The notes beneath the pieces are model-generated. The model worked only from the letters and a program-made list of their open reading frames with translations. It made no database searches and was not told the origin of the DNA. Positions 29,841 to 43,677 of a stretch of DNA of 52,771 bases are shown in pieces. The translations under genes were made by a program, and so were the position numbers. The first letter of the stretch is position 1. Every line of letters starts with the position of its first letter. The DNA lies in contig JBBSWW010000020.1 in the NCBI GenBank assembly GCA_038046085.1, positions 1 to 52,771 on the forward strand, read 5' to 3'. Origin of the DNA: Nanobdellota archaeon. GTDB taxonomy: Archaea; Nanobdellota; Nanobdellia; SCGC-AAA011-G17; GW2011-AR18.

Positions 29841-30197
29841 TTGAAGATTTTAGTATATGATATCTTAATGTTTGGGAGTACAAAGATAATAAGGTGGATT
29901 GATATTAAAGAGTTTAAAGAAATGATAGGATCTGATATAATAATAAGTAGTCACGCAATGGATCATTTAAGTAGGAGTCAAAGAAAAATATTTAAAGAAG
30001 AAGAACTGATTATGATAATAACAAGAGAGATTCCATATTGCGTTGGTTTACAGAAGAATGGTAGATATAGTCCATTTTTTAGAAGGAAAGAAAGTTTCAT
30101 TAGGATGATAATTGAAATTAAAGATAAAGTCGAGATTGTGACATTTATGTATACTGATAAATTGCCAAGTTTAGAAAGGATTCAAAATGAAAAATAG
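29841..30197 (+). CDS. DUF4258-like putative toxin
   Basis: ISSHAMDHLSRSQRKI resembles the DUF4258 HA..R..eR motif. It overlaps the downstream DUF2283-like gene by 11 nt. Confidence 0.4.
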   Translation: MKILVYDILMFGSTKIIRWIDIKEFKEMIGSDIIISSHAMDHLSRSQRKIFKEEELIMIITREIPYCVGLQKNGRYSPFFRRKESFIRMIIEIKDKVEIVTFMYTDKLPSLERIQNEK

Positions 30198-30576
30198 GAC
30201 ACTCAATGCAAAAGGTAAGGGAGAATATTCTTATGACTATTCTAACGATATCATGTTATTCAAGATTAAGGATAGAGATTATCTGAATTCTCTAGATTTT
30301 GATGATTGCAATCTTGTTGTTGATTTTGATACTGAGGGATTTATTACTGGTATCAGGATTTTTGATGCTTCTAAAGTTCTGAATCTTACTAAAGTTGCAT
30401 TGAATGACATTAAAGGTTGGGATTTTAACGCCAGTGTTGAGAATAATGTTATAAAAATACAGTTAAGATTTGTTGCTTTATACAGGAATAAAGAGAAAGC
30501 TGTGAACTATGCTCAGAATTTTGTCAGAGAATCTTCTAGTGTTCTTAATGATTCAGTTGCTGTATGTAGTGTTTGA
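30187..30576 (+). CDS. DUF2283-like putative antitoxin
   Basis: YDYSNDIMLFKI...VVDFDTEGFITGIRIFDAS matches the DUF2283 pattern. It is paired with the upstream small ORF. Confidence 0.5.
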   Translation: MKNRTLNAKGKGEYSYDYSNDIMLFKIKDRDYLNSLDFDDCNLVVDFDTEGFITGIRIFDASKVLNLTKVALNDIKGWDFNASVENNVIKIQLRFVALYRNKEKAVNYAQNFVRESSSVLNDSVAVCSV

Positions 30577-30601
30577 TTCTAATTATCCAGCAACTTGTTG
30601 G

Positions 30602-30652
30602 ACTTTCTAATTTTTCTGTAAATCTTTCAATATTTTCTTATAAAGACTTTTT
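30602..30652. repeat. 51-nt direct repeat, copy 1 (flanks the ORF6N gene)
   Basis: ACTTTCTAATTTTTCTGTAAATCTTTCAATATTTTCTTATAAAGACTTTTT differs at 2 of 51 positions from copy 2 at 31588..31638. Confidence 0.85.
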
Positions 30653-31561
30653 TTATTTCAATCCTAATCTATCTAATAACTCAAATGCTTCTTTATTGAA
30701 TTTTGAGAATGCAAACCATTTTTTGCCTAAGTCTTTTAATGAAGCTCCAATATGATATACCTCATTATTATCAATTATAAGAAACCTATCATGAGACTTC
30801 TTAAACTCTTTTATTTCAATGAGTGGATATTGTAAGTTATATTTAGTCAAGTCAAGAAGTAATTGTTTGGAAACATCTTTAGTAAATATTTTAACAAAAA
30901 CATTTTTATTTCTTTTACTAAACAGCGTTAAAATAGAATCATCTATATAGTTATCAATAAGGATTATAGACTTATCAGCAGTTCTAATTATGTCTGACAC
31001 AAATTTGTAAGAGTCAAATATCTGTCCATCAAAAAATATACCCTTTTCCGGCTTGATATCTTTGCTCTGTATTGCATCAAAGATTTCATCAAATTTATTA
31101 TCATGTTCTACTTGTTTTTTCTCAACCCTTTCCAAGCGATGAAAAACTTCTGCATTTGTAGTGATAAATCTTCTCATAGTAACAAATGCTCTCATTATTT
31201 GGACATTAACTTCTATTGCCCTATTATTAGTGATTATGCTAGAAATATTTGCTACTCCTTGTTCAGTAAATGCATATGGTAGATATCCACCAAGATGCTT
31301 TTTTGAAGGTATCGCATTTTGCGACACCAGAAACTCTACTTCTGAATCAGTAAGTTGAAACATAAAATCTGAAGGGAATCTTTTATTGTTTCTTTTGACT
31401 TGTTCTCTTAAGCGAATCGCCTTAACTTCATAAAGTTCAGCCAAATCCTTATCAAGCATTACTTGCATATTTCTTATTGTGTAAATTCTATTTTTGATGT
31501 TATCTGCGCTTAACTCCAATAGGTTATTTATCATTATTTTAATAATGTTATTATTATTCAT
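30653..31561 (-). CDS. ORF6N-domain protein (KilA-N-related DNA-binding domain plus a C-terminal HDR...GASLKDLGKK domain)
   Basis: IYTIRNMQVMLDKDLAELYEVKAIRLREQVKRNNKRFPSDFMFQLT and PYAFTEQGVANISS are the classic ORF6N blocks. Confidence 0.8.
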   Translation of the reverse strand: MNNNNIIKIMINNLLELSADNIKNRIYTIRNMQVMLDKDLAELYEVKAIRLREQVKRNNKRFPSDFMFQLTDSEVEFLVSQNAIPSKKHLGGYLPYAFTEQGVANISSIITNNRAIEVNVQIMRAFVTMRRFITTNAEVFHRLERVEKKQVEHDNKFDEIFDAIQSKDIKPEKGIFFDGQIFDSYKFVSDIIRTADKSIILIDNYIDDSILTLFSKRNKNVFVKIFTKDVSKQLLLDLTKYNLQYPLIEIKEFKKSHDRFLIIDNNEVYHIGASLKDLGKKWFAFSKFNKEAFELLDRLGLK

Positions 31562-31587
31562 AAGTTTAACTGAGAATTTTTAACGAT

Positions 31588-31638
31588 ACTTTCTAGTTTT
31601 TCTGTAAATCTTTCAATATTTTATTATAAAGACTTTTT
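31588..31638. repeat. 51-nt direct repeat, copy 2
   Basis: ACTTTCTAGTTTTTCTGTAAATCTTTCAATATTTTATTATAAAGACTTTTT lies between the ORF6N start and the stop of the TM-protein gene. Confidence 0.85.
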
Positions 31639-31674
31639 AATCTTTAATTATTTATATAATACCAAAGTAAACTT

Positions 31675-32391
31675 TCAAGTTGATATTTTTTCAAGAATGT
31701 AGGTTCTTCCATCTTTTAGATTAGTTAATTTTTTTACATTAATAATATATTCCTTCTTACTACCGACTTTTAGATATTCTATTTTTATCTCGTGAGTAAT
31801 GTTTTCTCCTGTAAAATTCCTTTGTAGTAAAGCACTACCAATAAGGGGGATGCTAGACTGAGGAAATATTGTTACATTATTATAATCAGATTTTATCGGG
31901 TAAGATATTCCATTAAGGGTGATATTTCCATCTAAGCTTTTTATCGAAGCAGGTAAATTACCCCAATTTTTTAGTTCCATATTCATTGTAATGCCATAAT
32001 CTGTAATCTTAGGATAAGAAGTTTCTATATCTAAAAATGGCCTATTTGTCACTTCAAAAGTTTGTATTGTATAATAAACTGAAAAAATTGAAACTATTAT
32101 AGCAAGAAGTGATATGACTATTGTACCAATTTTAGTATAATTGTCTTTTACCTCTAAATTTTTCATATTTTTGAGATCATGCAATTTTCTTATTCCTAAT
32201 TGGGTAAGCTTTATTTTTCCCTCTCTTTGTACTGCGTAAGCTTCTCCATTTGTTGAATGATCTGAATTTACAGCATAAATAGAAAACGTTTCCCAATCTT
32301 TACGAAATATCTTTTTTAAATGTGCATCATTAACATCATTATGAAATATATATTCCATTATCTCTATTATAATATCAATTGAGTCTTTCAT
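31675..32391 (-). CDS. single-pass membrane protein of unknown function, co-oriented 6 nt downstream of hsdM
   Basis: The 238-aa product has an N-terminal soluble domain, one TM helix (IGTIVISLLAIIVSIFSVYY) and a C-terminal beta-rich domain. Confidence 0.45.
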   Translation of the reverse strand: MKDSIDIIIEIMEYIFHNDVNDAHLKKIFRKDWETFSIYAVNSDHSTNGEAYAVQREGKIKLTQLGIRKLHDLKNMKNLEVKDNYTKIGTIVISLLAIIVSIFSVYYTIQTFEVTNRPFLDIETSYPKITDYGITMNMELKNWGNLPASIKSLDGNITLNGISYPIKSDYNNVTIFPQSSIPLIGSALLQRNFTGENITHEIKIEYLKVGSKKEYIINVKKLTNLKDGRTYILEKIST

Positions 32392-32397
32392 CTAATT

Positions 32398-33870
32398 TTA
32401 AACCTCTAGTTCTTTTAAGTTTTTAATAATCTTTTCTTCTAATTCCAATATTTTCTTCTTTATTACTTCAGGCTTTTCATATTTAACTTCTTCATATTCT
32501 ATCTCTTTATACTTTGAAATACTCAGGTCATAATTATTATCTTTTATTTCCTTAATTGGTACTATGAAACATTTTTTCTTTCTGTCAGTTAATTTTTCTT
32601 TAGTCCTATTTTTGAATCTCTCAATTATATCTGGAATATCATTTTTGTCAGGTTGTTCTGTTCTTTTATCATCTAAACTGAACCCATCTGCTTCCATATC
32701 ATAAAACCAAACCTCTTTTGTTGGTTCTCCCTTTGTAAAATAAAGAACCGCAGTAGAAACTCCTGCATATGGCTTGAATACTCCAGATGGCATAGAAATG
32801 ACTGCATCCAATCTGCATTTTTCTAACAATAATTCTCTTATTTTAAAATGTGCCTTTGAATTCCCAAATAAAACTCCATCTGGGACTATAACTGAGCATC
32901 TTCCACTATTTGTAAGAAGATTAAATATTAATTCTAAGAATAAAAGTTCTGTCTTTTTTGTCTGTGTTCTAAAGTTCTCTCCTATCTCTGATTCATCAAT
33001 GCTTCCTTTGAATGGAGGATTTGCTAATATTATATCGTAACAATTTGATTCATCAAATCTTTTTGATAATGTATTTTTTTGTTCTACATTTGGGTTACTT
33101 ATTCCATGCATCATTAAGTTCATTAATGATATTTTAAGCATTACATCGTCAAAATCATATCCATAAAGAGTTTCTTCTCTTAATATTCTCCATTGATTTT
33201 CATTTAGTTTATCTCCTGCAAAATTTCCTTCTTTTACTAGGTCTTTTGATGTATTATTCTTTAGAATATGCTCAAATGCTGAAACTAAGAAACCAGCTGT
33301 TCCGCATGCAGGATCACAGATTTTATCTCCATATTTTGGATTTAAGAGTTCAGTCATCATGTTTATTATATGTCTTGGAGTTCTGAATTGTCCATTTTTT
33401 CCTGCTGTTGCTAATTGTCCTAAAAGATATTCGTATAAATCTCCTTTTGTGTCTCTGTTTTGCTCTTTAATATGCATATCATTAATGATTTTTACAGCTT
33501 CAGCAAGTAAAGATGCAGTAGGTATTGAGAAAGAAGAATTTTTCATATACCTATTATAAACTGAATTTTCTTCACTATTTAATTTTCTTAAAAATGGGAA
33601 AACTGTATCTCTAACATGTTCTAACATTTGTTCAGCAGGCATTTCTGTCCATCTTGACCATTTGCAATCTTCATTTCCTTTAAAAATTGAATTATGTTTA
33701 TTACCTAATAATTTAGCATTTTGGTCTCTTGCAACATCTTCATCTTCTAATCTTTTCATAAATATTAGATAAGACATCTGTTCTATTGCCTGTAATGGAT
33801 TACTAATTCCACCACTCCAAAATTTATTCCATAATAAGTTTATTTTTGATTTTAGTTCTGAATCTAACAT
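32398..33870 (-). CDS. hsdM: type I restriction-modification system methyltransferase subunit HsdM
   Basis: It has an N-terminal HsdM_N helix bundle, the AdoMet motif DPACGTAGFL and the catalytic motif NPPF (LANPPFKGS). Confidence 0.9.
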   Translation of the reverse strand: MLDSELKSKINLLWNKFWSGGISNPLQAIEQMSYLIFMKRLEDEDVARDQNAKLLGNKHNSIFKGNEDCKWSRWTEMPAEQMLEHVRDTVFPFLRKLNSEENSVYNRYMKNSSFSIPTASLLAEAVKIINDMHIKEQNRDTKGDLYEYLLGQLATAGKNGQFRTPRHIINMMTELLNPKYGDKICDPACGTAGFLVSAFEHILKNNTSKDLVKEGNFAGDKLNENQWRILREETLYGYDFDDVMLKISLMNLMMHGISNPNVEQKNTLSKRFDESNCYDIILANPPFKGSIDESEIGENFRTQTKKTELLFLELIFNLLTNSGRCSVIVPDGVLFGNSKAHFKIRELLLEKCRLDAVISMPSGVFKPYAGVSTAVLYFTKGEPTKEVWFYDMEADGFSLDDKRTEQPDKNDIPDIIERFKNRTKEKLTDRKKKCFIVPIKEIKDNNYDLSISKYKEIEYEEVKYEKPEVIKKKILELEEKIIKNLKELEV

Positions 33871-34247
33871 TTTAGTTCCTCGTTTTTAATAATACTTTCA
33901 GACTTAGTTATATTTATTTCTTTATCTATATTATCTTCTATAAAGTATGAAATATCACTATTAAAGCTACATTCAATATATTGTTTTTTTTCTTTTAAAA
34001 AGAAAATAATCTGTTCAAAAAATTCTGGGAGACATTCTATTCTATATCCTTTGCCAAGATATTCTCCATCTTTTATCTCATTTCCCTTTAGTTTTTCTGC
34101 GAATTTCTTAGCTTCTAATAAGTCTTTTTCGAATTGTTCTCTCTCTGTATCTTTAGCTAATAAAATCTCTTCATGCTCGCCTTCATACCAATTATATTCT
34201 ATTTTAAAAATATTCATTTTATTTATAATCTCCTTTTTTATTTTCAC
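33864..34247 (-). CDS. hypothetical protein embedded in the type I R-M operon
   Basis: This 127-aa (or 117-aa from the ATG at 34217) acidic protein overlaps the hsdM start. I recognise no family. Confidence 0.4.
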   Translation of the reverse strand: MKIKKEIINKMNIFKIEYNWYEGEHEEILLAKDTEREQFEKDLLEAKKFAEKLKGNEIKDGEYLGKGYRIECLPEFFEQIIFFLKEKKQYIECSFNSDISYFIEDNIDKEINITKSESIIKNEELKC

Positions 34248-35070
34248 TATTAATGCTTAGTTTCTTAACACTTTTATTATCAATCAATGATCTCATCTGC
34301 GAAATTGCAATTTTATTTAACTTAATTAGTCTTTCTTCTTGTACGATACTATCTTTAATAAATTCAGAATTTAATGCTTCAAGATTGGCTAATACAACCA
34401 ATTGAGAGACATTTGCATAATCTCTTAAATTTCCTTCTTTCTGAGGGTTTTGGTCTTTCCATTCTTTTGCAGTCATACCAAACATTGCTTTATTTAAAAC
34501 ATCAGCCTCAGATGCATAGATAATTCTAGCATCTTTGGGAGAAATTTCTTGTGGTATCAAGTTTTCTTTAATAGCATCGGTATGTATTTTATAGTTTATT
34601 TTTACTAATTCCCTCTTTACATCCCATCCCAGCCTTAACCTTTCACTTTCTTCTATTTTTAACCTTTGGAATTCTTTTATGAGGTATAATCTAAATTCAA
34701 CAGATATCCATGAAGCAAACTCAAAAGCAATATCTTTATGTGCATATGTTCCGCCATATCTTCCAGGTGAAGAAATTATTCCAATGGCTTTAGTTTTATC
34801 TATCCATTGTTTAGGTGTTAAAATAAAACTATTAGTCCCAGCTCGATTTCTAAACCCATCGAATTCGATGGAATTAAAATTAAAATTATTTATCTTTTCC
34901 CAAATTCCTAAAAACTCGATGGTGTCCTTGTTCCTAAGCCAATTCTGTATAAGGTAATCACTTCTTTCAGGATCTTTATATTTTGCAATATCTGTTAGTG
35001 AGATAAAATCTTGATCATGTTTAGATAAAATGACTATATTACTACCTTTAATATTTATCATATTTTTCAT
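34219..35070 (-). CDS. KilA-N domain protein
   Basis: FISLTDIAKYKDPERSDYLIQNWLRNKDTIEFLGIWEKINN, GRYGGTYAHKDIAFEFASWISVEFRLYLIKEFQRLK and KINYKIHTDAIKENLIP are blocks typical of KilA-N proteins found in R-M loci. Confidence 0.85.
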   Translation of the reverse strand: MKNMINIKGSNIVILSKHDQDFISLTDIAKYKDPERSDYLIQNWLRNKDTIEFLGIWEKINNFNFNSIEFDGFRNRAGTNSFILTPKQWIDKTKAIGIISSPGRYGGTYAHKDIAFEFASWISVEFRLYLIKEFQRLKIEESERLRLGWDVKRELVKINYKIHTDAIKENLIPQEISPKDARIIYASEADVLNKAMFGMTAKEWKDQNPQKEGNLRDYANVSQLVVLANLEALNSEFIKDSIVQEERLIKLNKIAISQMRSLIDNKSVKKLSINSENKKGDYK

Positions 35071-35324
35071 ATTGCTTCTCCAGAAATATAGTCCAATTCA
35101 ACAGTATAGAATCTGACACGGTTAAACTTAGGATTATGTATTTTTTCCCAAATTCCTAAAAATTCAAGAGTATTCCTGTTTATAAACAAATTTATAATAA
35201 CAAAACTAGGTTCTTCGGGGTTCTTTTTTTTAGCAATGTCAGTTAAAGAAATATATTTTTGAGCATCTATCTGTTTAATTCCTATATCTGTACATTCTAC
35301 TTGAATTATTTTATTGTTTTTCAC
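35067..35324 (-). pseudogene. truncated KilA-N N-terminal paralogue (85 aa)
   Basis: YISLTDIAKKKNPEEPSFVIINLFINRNTLEFLGIWEKIHNPKFN aligns with the N-terminus of 34219..35070 and then ends. The start is intact, and an ATGA overlap means it could still be expressed as a short protein. Confidence 0.5.
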
Positions 35325-35325
35325 T

Positions 35326-36513
35326 TTAAGCCAATTCTCCCCTGAAAGCTTTTTGCATTAAAACATTAAATAAGTTATCAATGTGTTCTTTTGAATTTTT
35401 CTGTTGCTCTTTCATAACTTCAACTTCTTTGACAATTGAAGCGAATTTGTTTTGTAGTTCTATTGGGGGAATGGGAATCTCTAAATTTTTCATTATTGTT
35501 GTATTAAGATTGGGTTGTGTGCCTTCAGGCGCTAATTTTATAAGATAAGTTGTAATATGATTGATTAATTTTAACAAATAAAATTGATTTATTCTCTTAT
35601 CTAAATTTTCAAATGAAAGCCATCCATCATGGATACATCCTTCAATTTTTAATATCCTTGCAAACCCTAAACTTACTCCACAATTAGCAAAAATAAGTGA
35701 ACCTGGTTTTAATAACACACTTCTTTTAGCTCCTTCTTTAGTTATCATTACTTTTGTATCATCAATAAATAATTCATTTCCTTTAGTCCCATCGCCTATT
35801 TTGATCCAGGGAACTTCATTTCCTATAAACTCATCAATAGGTCTGGGAGATGCTCCTCTTCTGATTGTACATAAATTTTCTAATGGTAGTTTTGACCACT
35901 TTTTATTATTTATAATTGGATTTCCAAACATTTCCATAAAAACACTTTTTAAAAAATATTTAGTCAGTTCATCTATCTCTTTTCTTAATACTTTTGTCTG
36001 CTCTACTTTTTCTAATATTGATACAATTTTTTGCTGGATAACTAAAGGGGGGATTATTAAACAGATTTTTTCAATGGCTGAATTATTTATCCCGCTTTGT
36101 GTTGAACCTGTACTTAATTTATCTTTCAGTTCATTAAAATCCCTAGATATTAACATCAATCTTAAGTAACTAGGAGAGACTAATTTATAATTTACTTTTA
36201 TTCCAGAAAAACCAGTTGATAATATATATTTTTTAATCTCTTCTTTATTTTTTTCATCGAAAGAATAAACTTTTAATGTTGCTTTCATTTTTGCAAACCA
36301 AACAGAATTAAGGACTGGTTGCATATTAGCCCTAGATGGTCTATCTTCATAGGTTATAATGGCTTCAATTTTATTTATTTTTGTTCCCTTAATTGACTCA
36401 GTAGAAAGATAATTTTTTTCATCTTTAAATTCATCTATTCCGCTAGATAATATTGTAAAATATTCTTGATTTCCAAGTTCAACTTCCTTCCAACCATCTG
36501 GTAGTTTATGCAT
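35326..36513 (-). CDS. hsdS: type I R-M specificity subunit HsdS
   Basis: It has two target-recognition halves, each followed by the conserved helix motif (IPPLVIQQKIVSILEKVEQ and IPIPPIELQNKFASIVKEVE). Confidence 0.85.
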   Translation of the reverse strand: MHKLPDGWKEVELGNQEYFTILSSGIDEFKDEKNYLSTESIKGTKINKIEAIITYEDRPSRANMQPVLNSVWFAKMKATLKVYSFDEKNKEEIKKYILSTGFSGIKVNYKLVSPSYLRLMLISRDFNELKDKLSTGSTQSGINNSAIEKICLIIPPLVIQQKIVSILEKVEQTKVLRKEIDELTKYFLKSVFMEMFGNPIINNKKWSKLPLENLCTIRRGASPRPIDEFIGNEVPWIKIGDGTKGNELFIDDTKVMITKEGAKRSVLLKPGSLIFANCGVSLGFARILKIEGCIHDGWLSFENLDKRINQFYLLKLINHITTYLIKLAPEGTQPNLNTTIMKNLEIPIPPIELQNKFASIVKEVEVMKEQQKNSKEHIDNLFNVLMQKAFRGELA

Positions 36514-36961
36514 TCTTCATAACCTCAATAAATTTAGTAAAATCTATTACTTGAAAATTTGGATCTATCTCTTTTACAGCTTCTTGAAGAGCAACGTCAT
36601 TAGTTACAAGAATAAAACTGTTTTTAACGGCAGTCTCAGCAATTAAAGCATCTTTGATATTACCTCTATCTTTTGGTTTAGCTCTCTCTAATAAATTTAA
36701 TAACTTCTTATAAAATTTTCCATCGCTAAATTTTGCTTTACCCCATTTAGAAGTTCCCCAAACTAGCGATTCAGTAGGTAACTCTCTATGGCTGATTTCT
36801 TTAAATTTCGCTTCTAATTGTTTTCTTCTTTCTTCTTTTTGAGTATCATTTAATTCATCTTTAGGAATATGTGTAGTAAAAAATTCTCCTTTAAGACCAT
36901 TAATACAAATCTCATTATCTAAAAGCTTATTATATACATTTGTATCTAACATAAATTTCAT
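36506..36961 (-). CDS. PIN-like domain protein embedded in the type I R-M operon
   Basis: It has the N-terminal FMLDTNVYNKL and the C-terminal DALIAETAVKNSFILVTND, giving a PIN-like arrangement of acidic residues. It overlaps the hsdS start by 8 nt. Confidence 0.5.
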   Translation of the reverse strand: MKFMLDTNVYNKLLDNEICINGLKGEFFTTHIPKDELNDTQKEERRKQLEAKFKEISHRELPTESLVWGTSKWGKAKFSDGKFYKKLLNLLERAKPKDRGNIKDALIAETAVKNSFILVTNDVALQEAVKEIDPNFQVIDFTKFIEVMKNA

Positions 36962-36983
36962 ATTTTTCTCCTAAATTTATTAT

Positions 36984-38012
36984 TCACTTTGATAACTCCT
37001 TTTCTATATCTTCTATTGTAGGGAGACTAGACTTAAGTTTACCAGTTATAGACTTTGTTAATTCATATTCTGAAATGCCAATAGGCCTTGCAATATTTTT
37101 TAATGCATATTCTGCTATTACCTTATTCTTTTTCTTACAGAGTATCAAACCTATAGAAGCATTATCTGAAGTGTGTTTAAGTATATTGTCAACTGCATTT
37201 AAATAAAAATTAATCTTTCCAGCAAACTCCGGCTTAAAATCTCCTGCTTTTAATTCAATTATAACAAAACAACGTAATTTTAGATGATAAAACAATAAAT
37301 CAATATAAAAGTCCTCTTTACCAACTTTAAGAGGGACTTGTTTTCCAACATATGAAAATCCTGCACCTAGTTCCAATAAAAACTTAGTTACATTCTTTAC
37401 TAATTCGTTTTCAATTTCTTTTTCCTGAGCTTCTTCTGTAAGAGTTAAAAAATCAAAAATATATGGGTCTTTTAGAGTTTGTATAGCAAGATCAGATTGA
37501 GGTTTGGGAAGTATAGACTCAAAATTATTAACAAGTTTTCCTTTTCTATAATACAAATTGCTTTCTATATTTATTGAAAGGATATTTCTTGACCAATTAT
37601 TCTTTATAGTTTCAGTTAAGTAGAATATTGCCTCATCTATATTTTTTACCTTATTTAATATTGCAATATTATGTCCCCATGGTAATTGTCCAACAAGCTG
37701 TTGGACTTTTTGTTCAGTTTTAGAATAGAATAAGTACCATTGACGTATATTAAACAAATTTGTTCTAGAAAAACCTTTCATATTTGGGAATTCTTTGCTT
37801 AAATCTTTAGCAAGCATTTCTACTATAGAATCTCCATATTTTCCTCCTTTTTGTTTTTTTGTTATAATTGCTCCAATTTCCCAGTATAATAAAATAAGTT
37901 CTTTGTTAACTGAAATTGCAGCTTTAATTTGAATAGTCTTTATTTTGTTTTTAATATCTGATAAAATAGATAAATACTCATGATCACGTTTTATAACTTG
38001 ATTACTGATCAT
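36984..38012 (-). CDS. DUF1016 (YhcG-like) PD-(D/E)xK nuclease-family protein
   Basis: It has an N-terminal helical domain with LPWGHNIAIL and a C-terminal YIDLLFYH...IIELK core, which is typical of DUF1016. Confidence 0.75.
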   Translation of the reverse strand: MISNQVIKRDHEYLSILSDIKNKIKTIQIKAAISVNKELILLYWEIGAIITKKQKGGKYGDSIVEMLAKDLSKEFPNMKGFSRTNLFNIRQWYLFYSKTEQKVQQLVGQLPWGHNIAILNKVKNIDEAIFYLTETIKNNWSRNILSINIESNLYYRKGKLVNNFESILPKPQSDLAIQTLKDPYIFDFLTLTEEAQEKEIENELVKNVTKFLLELGAGFSYVGKQVPLKVGKEDFYIDLLFYHLKLRCFVIIELKAGDFKPEFAGKINFYLNAVDNILKHTSDNASIGLILCKKKNKVIAEYALKNIARPIGISEYELTKSITGKLKSSLPTIEDIEKELSK

Positions 38013-38410
38013 ATCTTCCCCCTAATTAATTTACTAGGTATAGATACAGCTTCTTTACTATCTTTTTTTATGTAAGTCTCTCTTTCATCAACTGCTTGTT
38101 TCAATGAATCAAACAATTGCCTAATATATTCACTGGATAAATCATATTCAACATCCACGTGTAATCCATTATCAAGAATTACTTTCCAACTAAAATTATC
38201 CTTATATTTATTATAAACAAAAAGGTTTTTTCCAGCAATATTTATAGGAATAGGATTTTTAATCTCATTCTTAATAAGTTCCTTAATCTGTGTTGAAGGT
38301 GTCAATCCCTTTGTATCACAATGAATTTTGAAATCTAAAAATTCAGTTTTTGAGAGCTTTGCTGATACAGTCTTAACTTCATATATGTCATCCCAGCTTT
38401 TTTTTATCAT
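38009..38410 (-). CDS. hypothetical protein between hsdR and the DUF1016 gene
   Basis: This 133-aa ORF has a 4-nt overlap with the DUF1016 gene. I recognise no family. Confidence 0.4.
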   Translation of the reverse strand: MIKKSWDDIYEVKTVSAKLSKTEFLDFKIHCDTKGLTPSTQIKELIKNEIKNPIPINIAGKNLFVYNKYKDNFSWKVILDNGLHVDVEYDLSSEYIRQLFDSLKQAVDERETYIKKDSKEAVSIPSKLIRGKI

Positions 38411-38474
38411 AATGCAATAATGTTAAAGTTATTTATTAATCTTTCTAATCTTGTAAACTTCAGTATACAAAATA

Positions 38475-41198
38475 TCATTTAATCTTTATTTTATTACATT
38501 CAACAACTATCTTTTGTAACTCAGATGTCTGGAACTTATCAAGAGGTCTTTCATTAGAAAGAGGCGGAACCGTAAAATCCTTTAATTCTATATGTTTAGT
38601 CCTGGCAAATACCTTTTTTAAAACTTGTAAGAACTTTATCTGCTCAGAGTTATATTGTTGATTTTTAAATAGTATATGAATATCAAATTCTCTTTCAATC
38701 AATACTTGAGGATCATATTCCCGTTTTAGTCCAAGAATCTTTCTCAAAAAGAGTATAAAATCTATTTTTTGTATCCTCTGTACATTATCAATTGTTATTT
38801 CAGGTCTTAATTCTCTTAATTGCTCTTCAAGTTTAAGAAGTTCATTAGGTGTTATTCCTTCTTCATTCCTTATTTTTTTAATCAAAAGATTTGTCTCTAA
38901 GAATTGTTTAAGTTCTTTATCTTCATTAACTTCTTTCTTAAAATTTTCAACATTTAGAACTAAGTCTGGAGCATCGACTTGTAGCATTCTTTTAGGATTT
39001 TTCTCATAATATACCATTAATGGTGCTAATTCTTTAATAATAAACTCAACATCTTCAAAAGTTAATTGTTCCCAAAAAGTTTCATTTATTATAGTAAGGA
39101 TTATATCCTTTTTATTTTGTATAACTTCTAGATTATCCTTCTGTAGGATATTATTTAGTTTTTCTTCAACATATTCAAAAACAGAGAAAATCTTCTCAAT
39201 ATTTTCATCAATAATATAACCAAATAGTTTTTCAACTTGTAATATAAAACTTGTAACTTCTGAATTTTTTCCAGGATTTAATGAAATTAAAGGAGCTATA
39301 TCTTTCTTTAGTTCTTCAATATAATTATTCAAATCGAACTTTCTAGAAACTATTTTCTTTATTATTGGTAATTTCTCACGTACAATAAATGAATCTTTAT
39401 TTAAAGAATTAACCTCATTTATAATCTTATCCTCAATGAATTTCTTTTGTTCTGGAGCTAATTTCTTATCTAATAGTTCAACTTTATTTAAAAAGATTCT
39501 TGTAAGTGCATCAGTTCCAGATTTTGATTCTTTAGACTCTTTCAAGTGATGATATCTAACATTCGAATGTCCTCCCAAACTAAAGTCCAAAATTAAAAAA
39601 TCATTTTTCTCTCTATTTGGTAACCACTCTTTATGTTTACAAGATTGAAGATTTCTAGTTCCTCTTCCTAGCATCTGCCAAAATCTAATTCCAGAAAATA
39701 CCGGTTTAACAAATACTAAATTGCAAACTTCAGGAATATCTATTCCAGTATCCAAGACTCCTACTGATAAAGCAATCCTTGGTTCAGAATCTAATTTAAA
39801 TCTTGCAATCTCATCAGTGTATCTATAAATCTCAGAGACAATTATCTGAACATCATTTCCCAAAGTTGGATCTAATTTATTAAATATCTTTTTAATATGT
39901 TTAGCATGAGAAATATTTGCACAGAAAAATATTGTTTTTGCAGGTTTACCTTCATCAGATTTATAACATCTATTTAAAAATTCTCTAACAATAAGTTCAT
40001 TAGTCTTATCATCCATAAAAACTTTAGCAAATGAAGCTCCAGGAAGCATCATATATTTTGGATCTTCTTCCTGTTTTATAAGTTGAAGTTGTAAATCTTT
40101 AGTTAAAGTTGCACCTTCAATTCCTAAAGCCAAAACTTTTGTATCAATAATCTGAGCATTATAAGGAACAAGAACTTCATCTCTTATTGCTTCATCATAA
40201 GAATATTCAACTGTTGGTTTATTTCCTTCACAATTAAACATTTCAAATGTATTCCTACTCTCTTCAGATGATGGTGTTGCAGTTAATCCAATTTTTATTG
40301 CATCAAAGTATCTATGAACTTCTCTATTTGGATCGTATATAGACCTATGAGCTTCATCAAAAATAATTAAATCAAAAAAACCAGGACTAATTTTTTCATA
40401 ATATTTACCATTCCTTCCACTTCTTAGCGTTTGAATTGTAGTCACATACATTCCATTTGGAAAACTTTGCGGATTATTTCTTAAATCAGTAACAGGCTCA
40501 CTAGGAAAAAATTCTTTAAAACCTGCTGATTTAGCTTGATTAGCCAAAGCAATCCTATCTGCAACAAAAAGGACATTTCTAACAATATTAGCTCTAAGTA
40601 ATACATCAACCATTGACATAGCAACTCTTGTCTTTCCTGTTCCTGTAGCCATAGAAACTAAAGCAGATTTGTGTCCTTTTTGGATATGTTCCATCAATTG
40701 TTTAACTACAAGAACACTTCTTGATCTATCTACAATTCTATCAATACTTATTTTTGTAGGATCTCTTCTTTTTCTATATAATTCCATTCTTCTTTTCAAA
40801 TCAGATTGAGAGAATACACCACTAACATGTCTTTCAACACCATCTTGATCTATAAATAACCATTTATGGCCATTAGTTAAAAATACAGGAATTTTCTCTC
40901 CAGTTTGATTTTCAATATCCTTAAAATAAGTTCTTGCTTGAGCTCTTCCTTCATCTTCTGAAACAGAAAACTTCTTAGCCTCTATTAATGCAACAGGAGT
41001 ATTATCTTCTGCTAATAATAAATAATCAATAAATCTTCCAGAATCATCATTTTGGCCTTTAGAAAGTACGTACTCTTTAATTTTAAAATTAGATATTACT
41101 GAATTTACTTCTTCCTTAATATATTTCTTAAGCCAACCACGTTTAGTTAATTGATAATCTATTAAATATTCTCTTGTTTGTTTTTCGGATAAATCCAT
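38475..41198 (-). CDS. hsdR: type I restriction enzyme R subunit HsdR (EcoEI-like C-terminus)
   Basis: It has an N-terminal PD-(D/E)xK core (IDYLLL...ALIEAKK), helicase motif I MATGTGKT, the DEAH box FDEAHR and motif VI QMLGRGTR, followed by a long helical C-terminal domain. Confidence 0.9.
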   Translation of the reverse strand: MDLSEKQTREYLIDYQLTKRGWLKKYIKEEVNSVISNFKIKEYVLSKGQNDDSGRFIDYLLLAEDNTPVALIEAKKFSVSEDEGRAQARTYFKDIENQTGEKIPVFLTNGHKWLFIDQDGVERHVSGVFSQSDLKRRMELYRKRRDPTKISIDRIVDRSRSVLVVKQLMEHIQKGHKSALVSMATGTGKTRVAMSMVDVLLRANIVRNVLFVADRIALANQAKSAGFKEFFPSEPVTDLRNNPQSFPNGMYVTTIQTLRSGRNGKYYEKISPGFFDLIIFDEAHRSIYDPNREVHRYFDAIKIGLTATPSSEESRNTFEMFNCEGNKPTVEYSYDEAIRDEVLVPYNAQIIDTKVLALGIEGATLTKDLQLQLIKQEEDPKYMMLPGASFAKVFMDDKTNELIVREFLNRCYKSDEGKPAKTIFFCANISHAKHIKKIFNKLDPTLGNDVQIIVSEIYRYTDEIARFKLDSEPRIALSVGVLDTGIDIPEVCNLVFVKPVFSGIRFWQMLGRGTRNLQSCKHKEWLPNREKNDFLILDFSLGGHSNVRYHHLKESKESKSGTDALTRIFLNKVELLDKKLAPEQKKFIEDKIINEVNSLNKDSFIVREKLPIIKKIVSRKFDLNNYIEELKKDIAPLISLNPGKNSEVTSFILQVEKLFGYIIDENIEKIFSVFEYVEEKLNNILQKDNLEVIQNKKDIILTIINETFWEQLTFEDVEFIIKELAPLMVYYEKNPKRMLQVDAPDLVLNVENFKKEVNEDKELKQFLETNLLIKKIRNEEGITPNELLKLEEQLRELRPEITIDNVQRIQKIDFILFLRKILGLKREYDPQVLIEREFDIHILFKNQQYNSEQIKFLQVLKKVFARTKHIELKDFTVPPLSNERPLDKFQTSELQKIVVECNKIKIK

Positions 41199-42653: not shown

Positions 42654-43211
42654 ATGATTCAAATAGAAATCAATTACAAATATGAAATCCTTATCTTAAT
42701 ACTTAAAAAAAAGGAATCTTATGGAAGAGAGTTAGCCAAAGAATTGAAAACATCTCTTACTAGAGTACAATCAATATTGGATGAATTAAGAAATGCTTCT
42801 GTAATAGATTATAAGGTTGTAGGCAAGAATCATATCTATTTTCTTAAAAAAAATCTTATTGCAAGATCATTCATAATAAATGCAGAAAATTATAAATTTG
42901 TAAGGACAATACAAAAATATCATATACTTGGTCCAATATTCGAAGATATAATAAAAAAAAGTAAATCTAATCTAATAATTTTGTTTGGAAGTTATGCAAA
43001 AGGTCTAGCAAGAGATGATAGTGATATTGATATCTATATTGATACAAGGGATATAAAAGAAAAGGAGGTAGTTGAGTCTATTTATTCCGAAATAAATGTA
43101 AAAATTAGACTTTTTGACGCGAAGGACTTATTAATTTCAGAGATTATTAAGAATCATGTTATAATAAAAGGCGTTGAAAAGTACTATGATAAATATAACA
43201 TTTTTAAATAA
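42654..43211 (+). CDS. wHTH plus minimal nucleotidyltransferase (MNT) antitoxin-like protein
   Basis: It has an N-terminal winged-helix region and the NTase motif ILFGSYAKGLARDDSDIDIYID. CTTAAATA (42622-42629) lies 24 nt upstream. Confidence 0.75.
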   Translation: MIQIEINYKYEILILILKKKESYGRELAKELKTSLTRVQSILDELRNASVIDYKVVGKNHIYFLKKNLIARSFIINAENYKFVRTIQKYHILGPIFEDIIKKSKSNLIILFGSYAKGLARDDSDIDIYIDTRDIKEKEVVESIYSEINVKIRLFDAKDLLISEIIKNHVIIKGVEKYYDKYNIFK

Positions 43212-43677
43212 ATTAAAAGATGAAGGTTCATTGATAATTATAGAACCATCCGAAGAAATTTCAATATCATATTCTTTAAAGAGTGATAATTGTATAAAGG
43301 TTGCAGAACTTGCTTTTGATGCTGGAATATATGAAAATTCTATAAGCGAAGCATATTATTCTATATATAATTCAGTGATGTCTCTTTTTTATAAATGTGG
43401 CATAAAATGTGAAAATCATTCAGCTGCTGTAATATTAGTTAAAGAACTTTTTAATTTAAAAGAATTATATGACATATTTTCTGAATTTAAGAAAGACAGA
43501 ATAGATAATCAGTATTATACTCCAGAGATAAAAAAGTTAGAAATGACAAAAGATATCTGTAATATTAAATTAAAAAATGCCAAGGACTTCAATTTTCATC
43601 TGCGTGTATATATAAGAGATTTAGGACTTGAGGAAATTAATAGAATAAGAAATAAATTCAATTCTCTTTTTCAGTAA
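43174..43677 (+). CDS. HEPN-domain protein (partner of MNT)
   Basis: Its four-helix pattern (AELAFDAGIYENSISEAYYSIYNSVMSLFYKCGI...NHSAAV) is typical of HEPN. It overlaps the MNT gene. The start may instead be the ATG at 43186. Confidence 0.55.
   Translation: MKSTMINITFLNKLKDEGSLIIIEPSEEISISYSLKSDNCIKVAELAFDAGIYENSISEAYYSIYNSVMSLFYKCGIKCENHSAAVILVKELFNLKELYDIFSEFKKDRIDNQYYTPEIKKLEMTKDICNIKLKNAKDFNFHLRVYIRDLGLEEINRIRNKFNSLFQ

Follow-up and report, generated by a model that had tools for sequence, protein, structure and literature searches.

The 52,771-nucleotide (nt) stretch of DNA analyzed here in full (hereafter, the window; contig JBBSWW010000020.1 of assembly GCA_038046085.1, from a Nanobdellota archaeon) carries a type I restriction-modification (R-M) locus, in which the genes for the three core subunits, hsdR, hsdS, and hsdM, are separated from one another by other genes. 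We consider this locus to be an intact R-M system of a horizontally mobile family, built as a fixed gene frame with two slots that act as recombination hotspots and collect unrelated, exchangeable genes (the cargo). These genes would be co-expressed with hsdS and hsdM, and each would act alone and not as part of a co-evolved machine; we place the probability of this reading at about 0.65. An initial annotation of the same DNA had proposed a single composite, co-evolved, multi-layer system. Its inventory stands: all eleven minus-strand open reading frames (ORFs) between positions 41198 and 30653 occur at the coordinates and lengths, in the order, and with the junctions that it gave, and its domain names are upheld by Pfam, PADLOC, and NCBIfam searches and, for the PIN protein, by homologues and a structure model. 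Catalytic motifs and junctions also bear out its description of the type I R-M locus as genuine and intact, with accessory genes that are closely packed and share one orientation. Its view of how these genes relate to one another is less well served by comparisons with related loci.

All proteins of the window were searched against a genome set of 80 loci that contain the closest HsdM relatives (62 to 93% identical; one genome per species), and a second set comprised 80 metagenome loci with relatives of the window's KilA-N protein. In 56 to 58 loci, the frame is conserved in the order hsdR, slot 1, hsdS, slot 2, and hsdM, with a 133-codon gene that we term u133 directly after hsdR in 32 of 58. 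Between the end of hsdR and the beginning of hsdM lie anywhere from 1.16 kb, where hsdS alone intervenes, to 8.6 kb, and the window, at 4.6 kb, is typical. At least one embedded ORF of at least 100 amino acids (aa) is present in 45 of the 58 loci (~78%; median of 3, maximum of 10), and 172 of 175 embedded ORFs are co-oriented. The cargo is highly varied (224 proteins form 139 sequence clusters, 97 of which are singletons): a Pfam census recovers Schlafen/AlbA_2, Bro-N, NYN, DUF3800, nucleotidyltransferases, PIN, WYL, Fic, UvrD, PDDEXK_3, and AAA_15, and a PADLOC census recovers PDC-S13, PDC-S04, PDC-M05A, HEC-01A, PtuA, and LmuA. Three loci are compact and cargo-free (L028, L034, and L035). 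The DUF1016, KilA-N, and membrane proteins of the window have no counterpart in any of the 80 HsdM-related loci, and its combination of genes is found in none of the 160 loci of the two sets. The exact gene order, whose recurrence the initial annotation had suggested surveying, is thus absent from all related loci surveyed, and the situation that it had named as telling against its own proposal, namely, variable presence of the embedded genes in otherwise identical loci, is nearly what we observe, in that cargo differs among related loci.

The limits of the cargo are visible at the DNA level. A blastn comparison with a related locus (L001) aligns the window in three blocks: 41198 to 38021 (ending about ten bases before the end of u133), 36507 to 35333 (hsdS), and 33879 to 32410 (hsdM). 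Homology stops at the start of the DUF1016 gene, and its breakpoints coincide with the cargo borders, from which we recognize two slots, both on the minus strand, as are all genes below unless stated otherwise: slot 1 (38012 to 36506), with genes for a DUF1016 and a PIN protein, and slot 2 (35324 to 33871), with a KilA-N relic, a full-length KilA-N gene, and a small gene, u127. Slot borders can therefore be read from homology breakpoints. The initial annotation had counted seven embedded non-R-M genes; the embedding is real, but six genes lie between the core genes, one of which is a gene relic and another of which, u133, belongs to the conserved R-M frame and is not the accessory insertion that it had been taken for. 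The gene for the membrane protein, mem238, is appended after hsdM and does not lie between core genes. Since the combination does not recur, the cargo varies, and homology is interrupted where the cargo begins and ends, a single composite system that evolved as one is not supported.

The core genes themselves are intact. hsdR (38475 to 41198) encodes a restriction subunit of 907 aa that is related to the EcoAI/EcoEI group and matches ResIII (8e-33), Helicase_C, EcoEI_R_C (1e-8), and PADLOC REase_I (2.5e-90). Its motifs D58...E73-A-K75, GTGKT186, DEAH281, and QMLGRGTR508 are all preserved, and it is 49 to 84% identical to the HsdR proteins of related loci. It scores below the curated NCBIfam cut-off for EcoAI/FtnUII (228.7 bits versus 550); judged by its sequence, which includes the EcoEI_R_C domain, it is related to type IB (EcoAI/EcoEI) but is no curated member. 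hsdS (35326 to 36513) encodes a specificity subunit of 395 aa with two target-recognition domains, seen as two Methylase_S stretches and a full-length match to PADLOC Specificity_I (2e-53; residues 24 to 394); in alignments with relatives, its conserved ends align and its middle diverges. hsdM (32398 to 33870) encodes an N6-adenine methyltransferase subunit of 490 aa with matches to N6_Mtase (7e-64), HsdM_N (4e-14), and PADLOC MTase_I (1.6e-178), as well as intact DPACGTAGF186 and NPPF284 motifs. Proteins up to 93% identical to it occur in other archaeal metagenome-assembled genomes (MAGs), the closest relatives being in Woesearchaeota MAGs. Given the predicted nuclease/helicase of HsdR, the S-adenosylmethionine and NPPF motifs of HsdM, the two target-recognition domains of HsdS, and the shared orientation of the genes, the locus is by its gene content a type I R-M system, and an HsdR2M2S1 complex would be expected to restrict unmethylated DNA in the usual way.

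HsdM proteins with 81 to 93% identity are scattered over MAGs labelled Woesearchaeota, Methanosarcinales, Nitrososphaeraceae, and Nanohaloarchaea, plus a Bacteroidota (Vicingus) bin, a distribution explained either by a very recent horizontal transfer of the R-M frame between phyla or by binning errors. In another instance, a complete Woesearchaeota genome (L060, 8517 to 11431) contains two tandem hsdM genes after hsdS, 45% and 63% identical to the HsdM of the window.

The frame gene u133 (38009 to 38410) encodes a probable regulator of 133 aa with a ribbon-helix-helix (RHH)-like N terminus and a highly conserved C-terminal domain. It has 82 homologues (mean column identity of 70%), all without a name or Pfam domain. 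Contigs anchored on u133 always follow the order hsdR-u133-...-hsdS-...-hsdM, with the stop codon of u133 overlapping the start of the following gene, whichever that is. The AlphaFold2 model of the protein (mean predicted local distance difference test score [pLDDT] of 74.6; predicted template modeling score of 0.41) contains helices at residues 21 to 34 and 38 to 51, with pLDDT values of 87 to 96, followed by a three-stranded sheet and a helix. No strand is assigned to the VSAKLS segment ahead of the helices, which may form the strand of an RHH fold; the sequence contains both VSAKLS15 and GLTPS35. Sub-threshold matches were to RHH_7 (0.005), DUF6290 (1e-4), and ParG (1p94; E value of 0.28). 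Foldseek returned nothing significant in PDB or BFVD, and sequence searches yielded no PDB match under an E value of 0.28, no Pfam match above threshold, and no match to a helix-turn-helix (HTH) family.

The region upstream of u133 is conserved as well. A palindromic operator-like site, TTGTATAC-TGAA-GTTTACAA (38451 to 38470), begins 4 nt past the hsdR stop codon and is the only GTNNAC-N2-10-GTNNAC dyad in the 52.8 kb of the window. In most related loci, a dyad of this kind (GTNNAC-N2-8-GTNNAC) starts between positions -52 and -64 from the u133 ATG, and of the 47 dyads found across related loci (1.22 Mb in total), 20 lie within 110 nt upstream of u133, against ~0.14 expected (an enrichment of ~140-fold). 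Perfect 8/8 palindromes are present in 9 of 37 u133 upstream regions, versus a mean of 1.1 (maximum of 5) in shuffles. A TATA-like box, TTAATAAATA (38430 to 38439), is situated at -29 from the u133 ATG and is the predicted promoter of a leaderless u133 transcript: a TATA-like box falls between -28 and -34 (mostly at -29 or -30) in 27 of the 37 upstream regions, and no Shine-Dalgarno-like motif precedes u133, unlike the internal genes of the locus. Where other genes part u133 from hsdR, the operator/TATA element stays with u133. Moreover, the class of half-site tracks the N-terminal strand of the protein (KTVSAKL with GTAAAC, NKVVMAKL with GTTAAC or GTTTAC, and FKSVSAKM with GTCAAC), although this correlation could arise partly from shared descent.

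From the conserved palindrome and TATA box ahead of u133, we infer a separate transcript that runs from u133 to hsdM. Altogether, the sequence suggests three transcription units, namely, hsdR, u133 through mem238, and the distal ORF6N gene; as such, the close packing on which the initial annotation had based its estimate of one or two transcripts is correct, but the operator/TATA element and the separate ORF6N cassette suggest at least three. From hsdR onward, the junctions are a 64-nt gap to u133, a 4-nt overlap (ATGA) between u133 and the DUF1016 gene, a 22-nt gap to the PIN gene, an 8-nt overlap with hsdS, a 1-nt gap to the KilA-N fragment, and a 4-nt overlap of this fragment with the full KilA-N gene. 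The next gene, u127, either overlaps the KilA-N gene by 29 nt (GTG start) or follows it after 1 nt (ATG at 34217, the choice of the gene caller, giving 117 aa); it overlaps hsdM by 7 nt, with gaps of 6 nt between hsdM and mem238 and 113 nt between mem238 and the ORF6N gene. Shine-Dalgarno-like GGAG/GAGG motifs stand ahead of the internal genes and not ahead of u133 or ORF6N. A scan for sigma-70 promoters was uninformative, with 75 sites in the window versus 74 expected. The host is an archaeon, as indicated by the genes flanking the locus (Gins51, aIF2-alpha, PAC2, ribosomal L44e and S27e, and an archaeal phosphoglycerate mutase), and is probably a DPANN/Woesearchaeota-like inhabitant of groundwater.

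In the mechanism that we favor, u133 would be a small RHH-like DNA-binding protein, probably autoregulating its own transcript via the palindrome, and the cargo would be transcribed together with hsdS and hsdM from the promoter ahead of u133 and be translationally coupled to its neighbors. By virtue of this shared promoter and coupling, cargo would be regulated along with the R-M genes and transferred with them. Individual cargo genes would work independently, each as a candidate second-line nuclease, DNA-binding defense protein, or toxin module. We also put forward, at slightly less than even odds, a wider role for u133: it would found a family, as yet undescribed, whose RHH-type members control type I R-M systems in archaea. 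In this role, it would bind a co-evolving palindrome beside the B recognition element/TATA box of its own leaderless transcript and gate hsdS, hsdM, and cargo separately from hsdR. Its C-terminal domain could tie such control to the status of the R-M complex, and the frame would amount to a regulated "expression dock" for exchangeable defense genes. Our literature search found such a regulator nowhere described. If u133 truly controls the transcript for HsdS, HsdM, and cargo, this would explain how potentially toxic passengers can be expressed safely, and u133 plus the dyad would offer a simple marker for such docks and for mining new archaeal defense genes among their cargo.

Small regulators are known from other R-M loci. 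In the RRDM island of enteropathogenic Escherichia coli, the RptR repressor and the toxin module DarTG2 are embedded in a type I R-M system (seven ORFs), and RptR, to which u133 can be likened, is a small, dedicated DNA-binding regulator that acts on repeated/palindromic sites in the island promoter (PMC12255303). The sequences of the two proteins are unrelated: RptR is all-helical, stands first in its island, and comes from Gammaproteobacteria, whereas u133 combines an RHH-like part with an additional C-terminal domain, follows hsdR, and occurs mainly in archaeal loci. The C proteins of type II R-M systems are small HTH regulators whose gene lies upstream of the endonuclease gene, with a palindromic operator upstream of their own promoter. 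By analogy, u133, which has in common with them a palindromic operator upstream of its own promoter, would likely set the balance between the expression of modification and restriction; however, it lacks an HTH match, lies downstream of hsdR, and heads the transcript for HsdS and HsdM, so that it may be controller-like in function but is not a member of this group.

The first gene of slot 1 (36984 to 38012) encodes a DUF1016/YhcG PD-(D/E)xK nuclease of 342 aa, which matches YhcG_C (7e-63), DUF1016_N (2e-43), and, over residues 8 to 341, the PADLOC family PDC-S02 (1.4e-144). Its nuclease motif (D238...E253-L-K255) is intact, and as a single gene embedded between u133 and hsdS that matches at full length, it belongs in PDC-S02. 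The position of DUF1016 between type I core genes has been observed previously (PMC9881135), and PDC-S02 is thought to have been transferred from bacteria into archaea (PMC12988326). No close relatives of the window's DUF1016 protein were found in viral contigs. A groundwater contig with the same R-M family (L096, 3099 to 4187 and 10834 to 12453) carries a DUF1016 gene divergently beside hsdR together with an ArdC-N/Peptidase_M78 gene, and its slot 2 holds an OLD-like AAA_15-TOPRIM protein.

The second gene of slot 1 (36506 to 36961) encodes a PIN-fold nuclease of 151 aa. Its own Pfam match is weak (1.2e-3); its identity is confirmed by homologues annotated as PF01850, by the conservation across the family of four acidic residues (E36, D104, and D122 invariant; D6 nearly so), and by Foldseek matches of its AlphaFold2 model (pLDDT of 85) to HARP RNase P (1e-5) and VapC (2e-4). 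It thus shares with the VapBC toxin-antitoxin systems the fold and the four acidic residues, VapC being among its best structural matches, but differs from them in that no small antitoxin gene is adjacent: the upstream neighbor in the window is the DUF1016 gene, and in other loci it is an AlbA_2-type gene, a 227-aa ORF, or hsdR. PIN relatives occur in 4 of the 80 HsdM-related loci, in one further type I locus (slot 1), and, beyond R-M systems, in mobile contexts among transposases, a resolvase, and an integrase. DUF1016 and PIN are ruled out as a fixed pair, since in relatives the PIN gene comes after other genes or immediately after hsdR. We also discarded the possibility that the protein is truncated compared with its relatives of ~173 aa: both ends align, and the difference lies in an internal, variable "PTES..." repeat segment. 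Most relatives contain a duplicated PTES(A/F)V...SK/R..K(A/S)K segment (alignment columns ~100 to 145), and the window and a few others have a single copy. Slot 1 of three related loci (L014, L019, and L045) contains a PIN gene after an ORF of 438 to 465 aa from cargo cluster 3, which agrees in size and count with the Schlafen/AlbA_2 plus HATPase_c_4 matches of the census; this ORF and the PIN gene may form a recurrent two-gene cargo cassette.

Slot 2 opens with a KilA-N relic of 85 aa (35067 to 35324), which covers the N-terminal ~75 residues of the family (PDC-S22 positions 1 to 75; 1.6e-22). With 49% identity to the adjoining full copy, it cannot be a recent tandem duplicate and is what is left of another allele, suggesting that cargo has been replaced in this slot. 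The same pairing of a short N-terminal KilA-N fragment (~80 aa) with a full KilA-N gene immediately downstream is seen in an unrelated, high-GC locus (L103, JFJP01040389.1, 6500 to 7700), where the fragment is cut at the same position as in the window, ~10 residues past NPxFN; the shared cut point could be a recurrent breakpoint or mark a functional short form. The full KilA-N gene of the window (34219 to 35070), located between hsdS and hsdM, encodes 283 aa with matches to the Pfam domain (2e-23) and to PDC-S22 (7.2e-132; residues 3 to 275). In the 80 metagenome loci, its relatives (59 to 68% identical) have as direct neighbors type I methylases and specificity subunits, DISARM-like SNF2 helicases, and type II methylases. 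Full-length PDC-S22-like KilA-N genes are also common in viral contigs (L182 to L261, predicted viruses and proviruses), beside integrases, CI/S24 repressors, and serine recombinases; by these associations, the family is common to the lysogeny modules of prophages and the slots of defense systems.

The remaining gene of slot 2, u127 (33864 to 34217 from its ATG), encodes 127 aa from a GTG start or 117 aa from the ATG, overlaps the start of hsdM, and matches no family in Pfam, PADLOC, or NCBIfam profile searches. Its homologues (53 to 61% identical) occur in 3 of the 80 HsdM-related loci: those of L003 and L005 share its position, and that of L070 lies downstream of hsdM. DNA homology with L003 continues through u127 into hsdM. 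This distribution suggests a semi-conserved companion that travels with hsdM. KilA-N and u127 do not form a pair, since the homologues in L003 and L005 follow other genes.

Two further genes lie beyond hsdM. The first, mem238 (31675 to 32391), starts 6 nt past hsdM, outside the conserved frame, and encodes a single-pass membrane protein of 238 aa with one hydrophobic segment at approximately residues 84 to 112; homology with related loci stops at the hsdM stop codon, before this gene. A word-indexed search of 5.8 billion proteins returned no homologues, and an exhaustive search of 1.84 billion representatives returned nine weak partial matches, such that mem238 qualifies as a lineage-specific orphan. 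The second (30653 to 31561) encodes an ORF6N-domain protein of 302 aa (Pfam, 2e-31) with a full-length match to PDC-S05 (5e-116; residues 13 to 299). It adjoins the R-M genes without being embedded among them. Homologues with 63% identity occupy slot 1 of L045 and a position beside hsdM and KilA-N in L157; of the 80 HsdM-related loci, a single one contains a relative, situated in slot 1. A 51-nt direct repeat brackets the gene, with an upstream copy (31588 to 31638) that ends 27 nt before the ORF6N start and a downstream copy (30602 to 30652) that abuts its stop codon; on this basis, we regard ORF6N as a separately inserted cassette of ~1 kb. The copies are identical at 49 of 51 positions, their core 26-mer occurs twice in the window versus 0 expected, and, read on the ORF6N strand, they include a TTTATAA box. 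Among 181 loci searched, the repeat was found only in contigs of the source population. It looks like either an insertion scar or the duplicated promoter region of the cassette.

The nesting of defense- and toxin-like genes in type I R-M operons is a known and common habit, of which the window is an ordinary example. According to Payne et al. 2024 (bioRxiv 10.1101/2024.01.29.577857), embedding in type I R-M loci is frequent, with 96.7% of embedded genes co-oriented, and PDC-S02, PDC-S22, and PDC-S05 are candidate families defined by their embedding in BREX, DISARM, and type I R-M loci. The window fits this "guilt-by-embedding" scheme in that co-oriented accessory genes are nested between hsdR, hsdS, and hsdM, in that its DUF1016, KilA-N, and ORF6N proteins match PDC-S02, PDC-S22, and PDC-S05 at full length, and in that the cargo of its sister loci is highly diverse. 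It differs in that the survey covers RefSeq genomes, and the accessible part of the preprint describes neither the slots nor u133, whereas the window represents an archaeal, DPANN-like family with the order hsdR-hsdS-hsdM, two slots, and a regulator-like gene. The novelty is thus modest and resides in the frame with two defined slots that marks this archaeal R-M family, in the unannotated protein u133, and in the co-varying operator that precedes its gene. The window adds a case from a small archaeal genome, in which PDC-S02, PDC-S22, PDC-S05, and an orphan PIN nuclease share one short locus as potential test material.

The same preprint discusses a hypothesis under which the locus would be a genomic sink, where embedded selfish or mobile-element genes pile up at an insertion-tolerant site with no role in defense. 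Some features of the window suit it, including the company that KilA-N relatives keep in viral contigs (integrases, CI-like repressors, and recombinases), the occurrence of PIN relatives among transposases and integrases, a gene relic and an insertion scar within the locus, the orphan status of mem238, and the fact that the PDC families are candidates only. Still, we judge it unlikely, in view of the intact catalytic motifs of DUF1016 and PIN, the strict co-orientation and start/stop coupling that suggest expression, and the presence among the cargo of related loci of recognized defense proteins (PtuA, LmuA, OLD-like, and HEC-01); in addition, several embedded candidates from the survey of Payne et al. 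2024 protected against phages.

Very unlikely, in our assessment, is the integrated system of the initial annotation, in which the nucleases, DNA-binding proteins, and membrane protein would constitute one unit with HsdMSR, kept inactive by the R-M complex and released when restriction fails or is inhibited. The model for this back-up idea is EcoprrI-PrrC, where a type I R-M operon contains the gene for a latent nuclease, and the embedding survey itself proposes back-up roles (bioRxiv 10.1101/2024.01.29.577857). The genes of the window are indeed tightly packed, co-oriented, and translationally coupled, in an arrangement shared without change by all contigs sampled from the population, and the PIN nuclease comes without an antitoxin. 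Unlike EcoprrI, however, the window contains no ABC-ATPase or anticodon nuclease (no ORF of the locus matches PrrC or either of these in PADLOC, Pfam, or NCBIfam), the combination recurs in none of the related loci, every cargo family is also found with other partners or host systems, the same R-M family includes compact loci free of cargo, and neither mem238 nor ORF6N belongs to the conserved frame, ORF6N having an insertion scar of its own. An island targeted to a tRNA gene is ruled out, as the window has no tRNA genes.

Several points weigh against our preferred reading, that of a fixed frame with independent cargo in two slots. The genome set includes many incomplete MAG contigs, in which rarer recurrences of the gene order may be missed, and simple ORF calling may have counted some divergent pieces of hsdS as cargo. 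The RHH assignment of u133 draws on a medium-confidence model and sub-threshold hidden Markov model matches, and the PIN nuclease, which has no visible antitoxin, perhaps depends on a neighbor. Furthermore, every contig of the source population among the matches listed (10 of 18 carrying u133) shows the same arrangement, such that the gene combination, as seen in these sequences, is locally stable as well as nonrecurrent and may involve locally evolved functional coupling. The identical contigs come from 0.1-µm filtrates of Hainich groundwater.

Additional small modules adjoin the locus on both sides. Across the GINS gene from the R-M genes, on the plus strand (42654 to 43677), a nucleotidyltransferase gene (Polbeta/NTP_transf_2, with weak matches to PDC-M05A and PDC-S09) overlaps a HEPN-like ORF, forming a pair that resembles MNT-HEPN toxin-antitoxin systems. 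On the other side, also on the plus strand (29841 to 30576), a DUF2283 gene and an overlapping ORF of 118 aa are convergent with ORF6N, from which they are separated by a hairpin (30586 to 30602), and form a small two-gene module adjoining the island.

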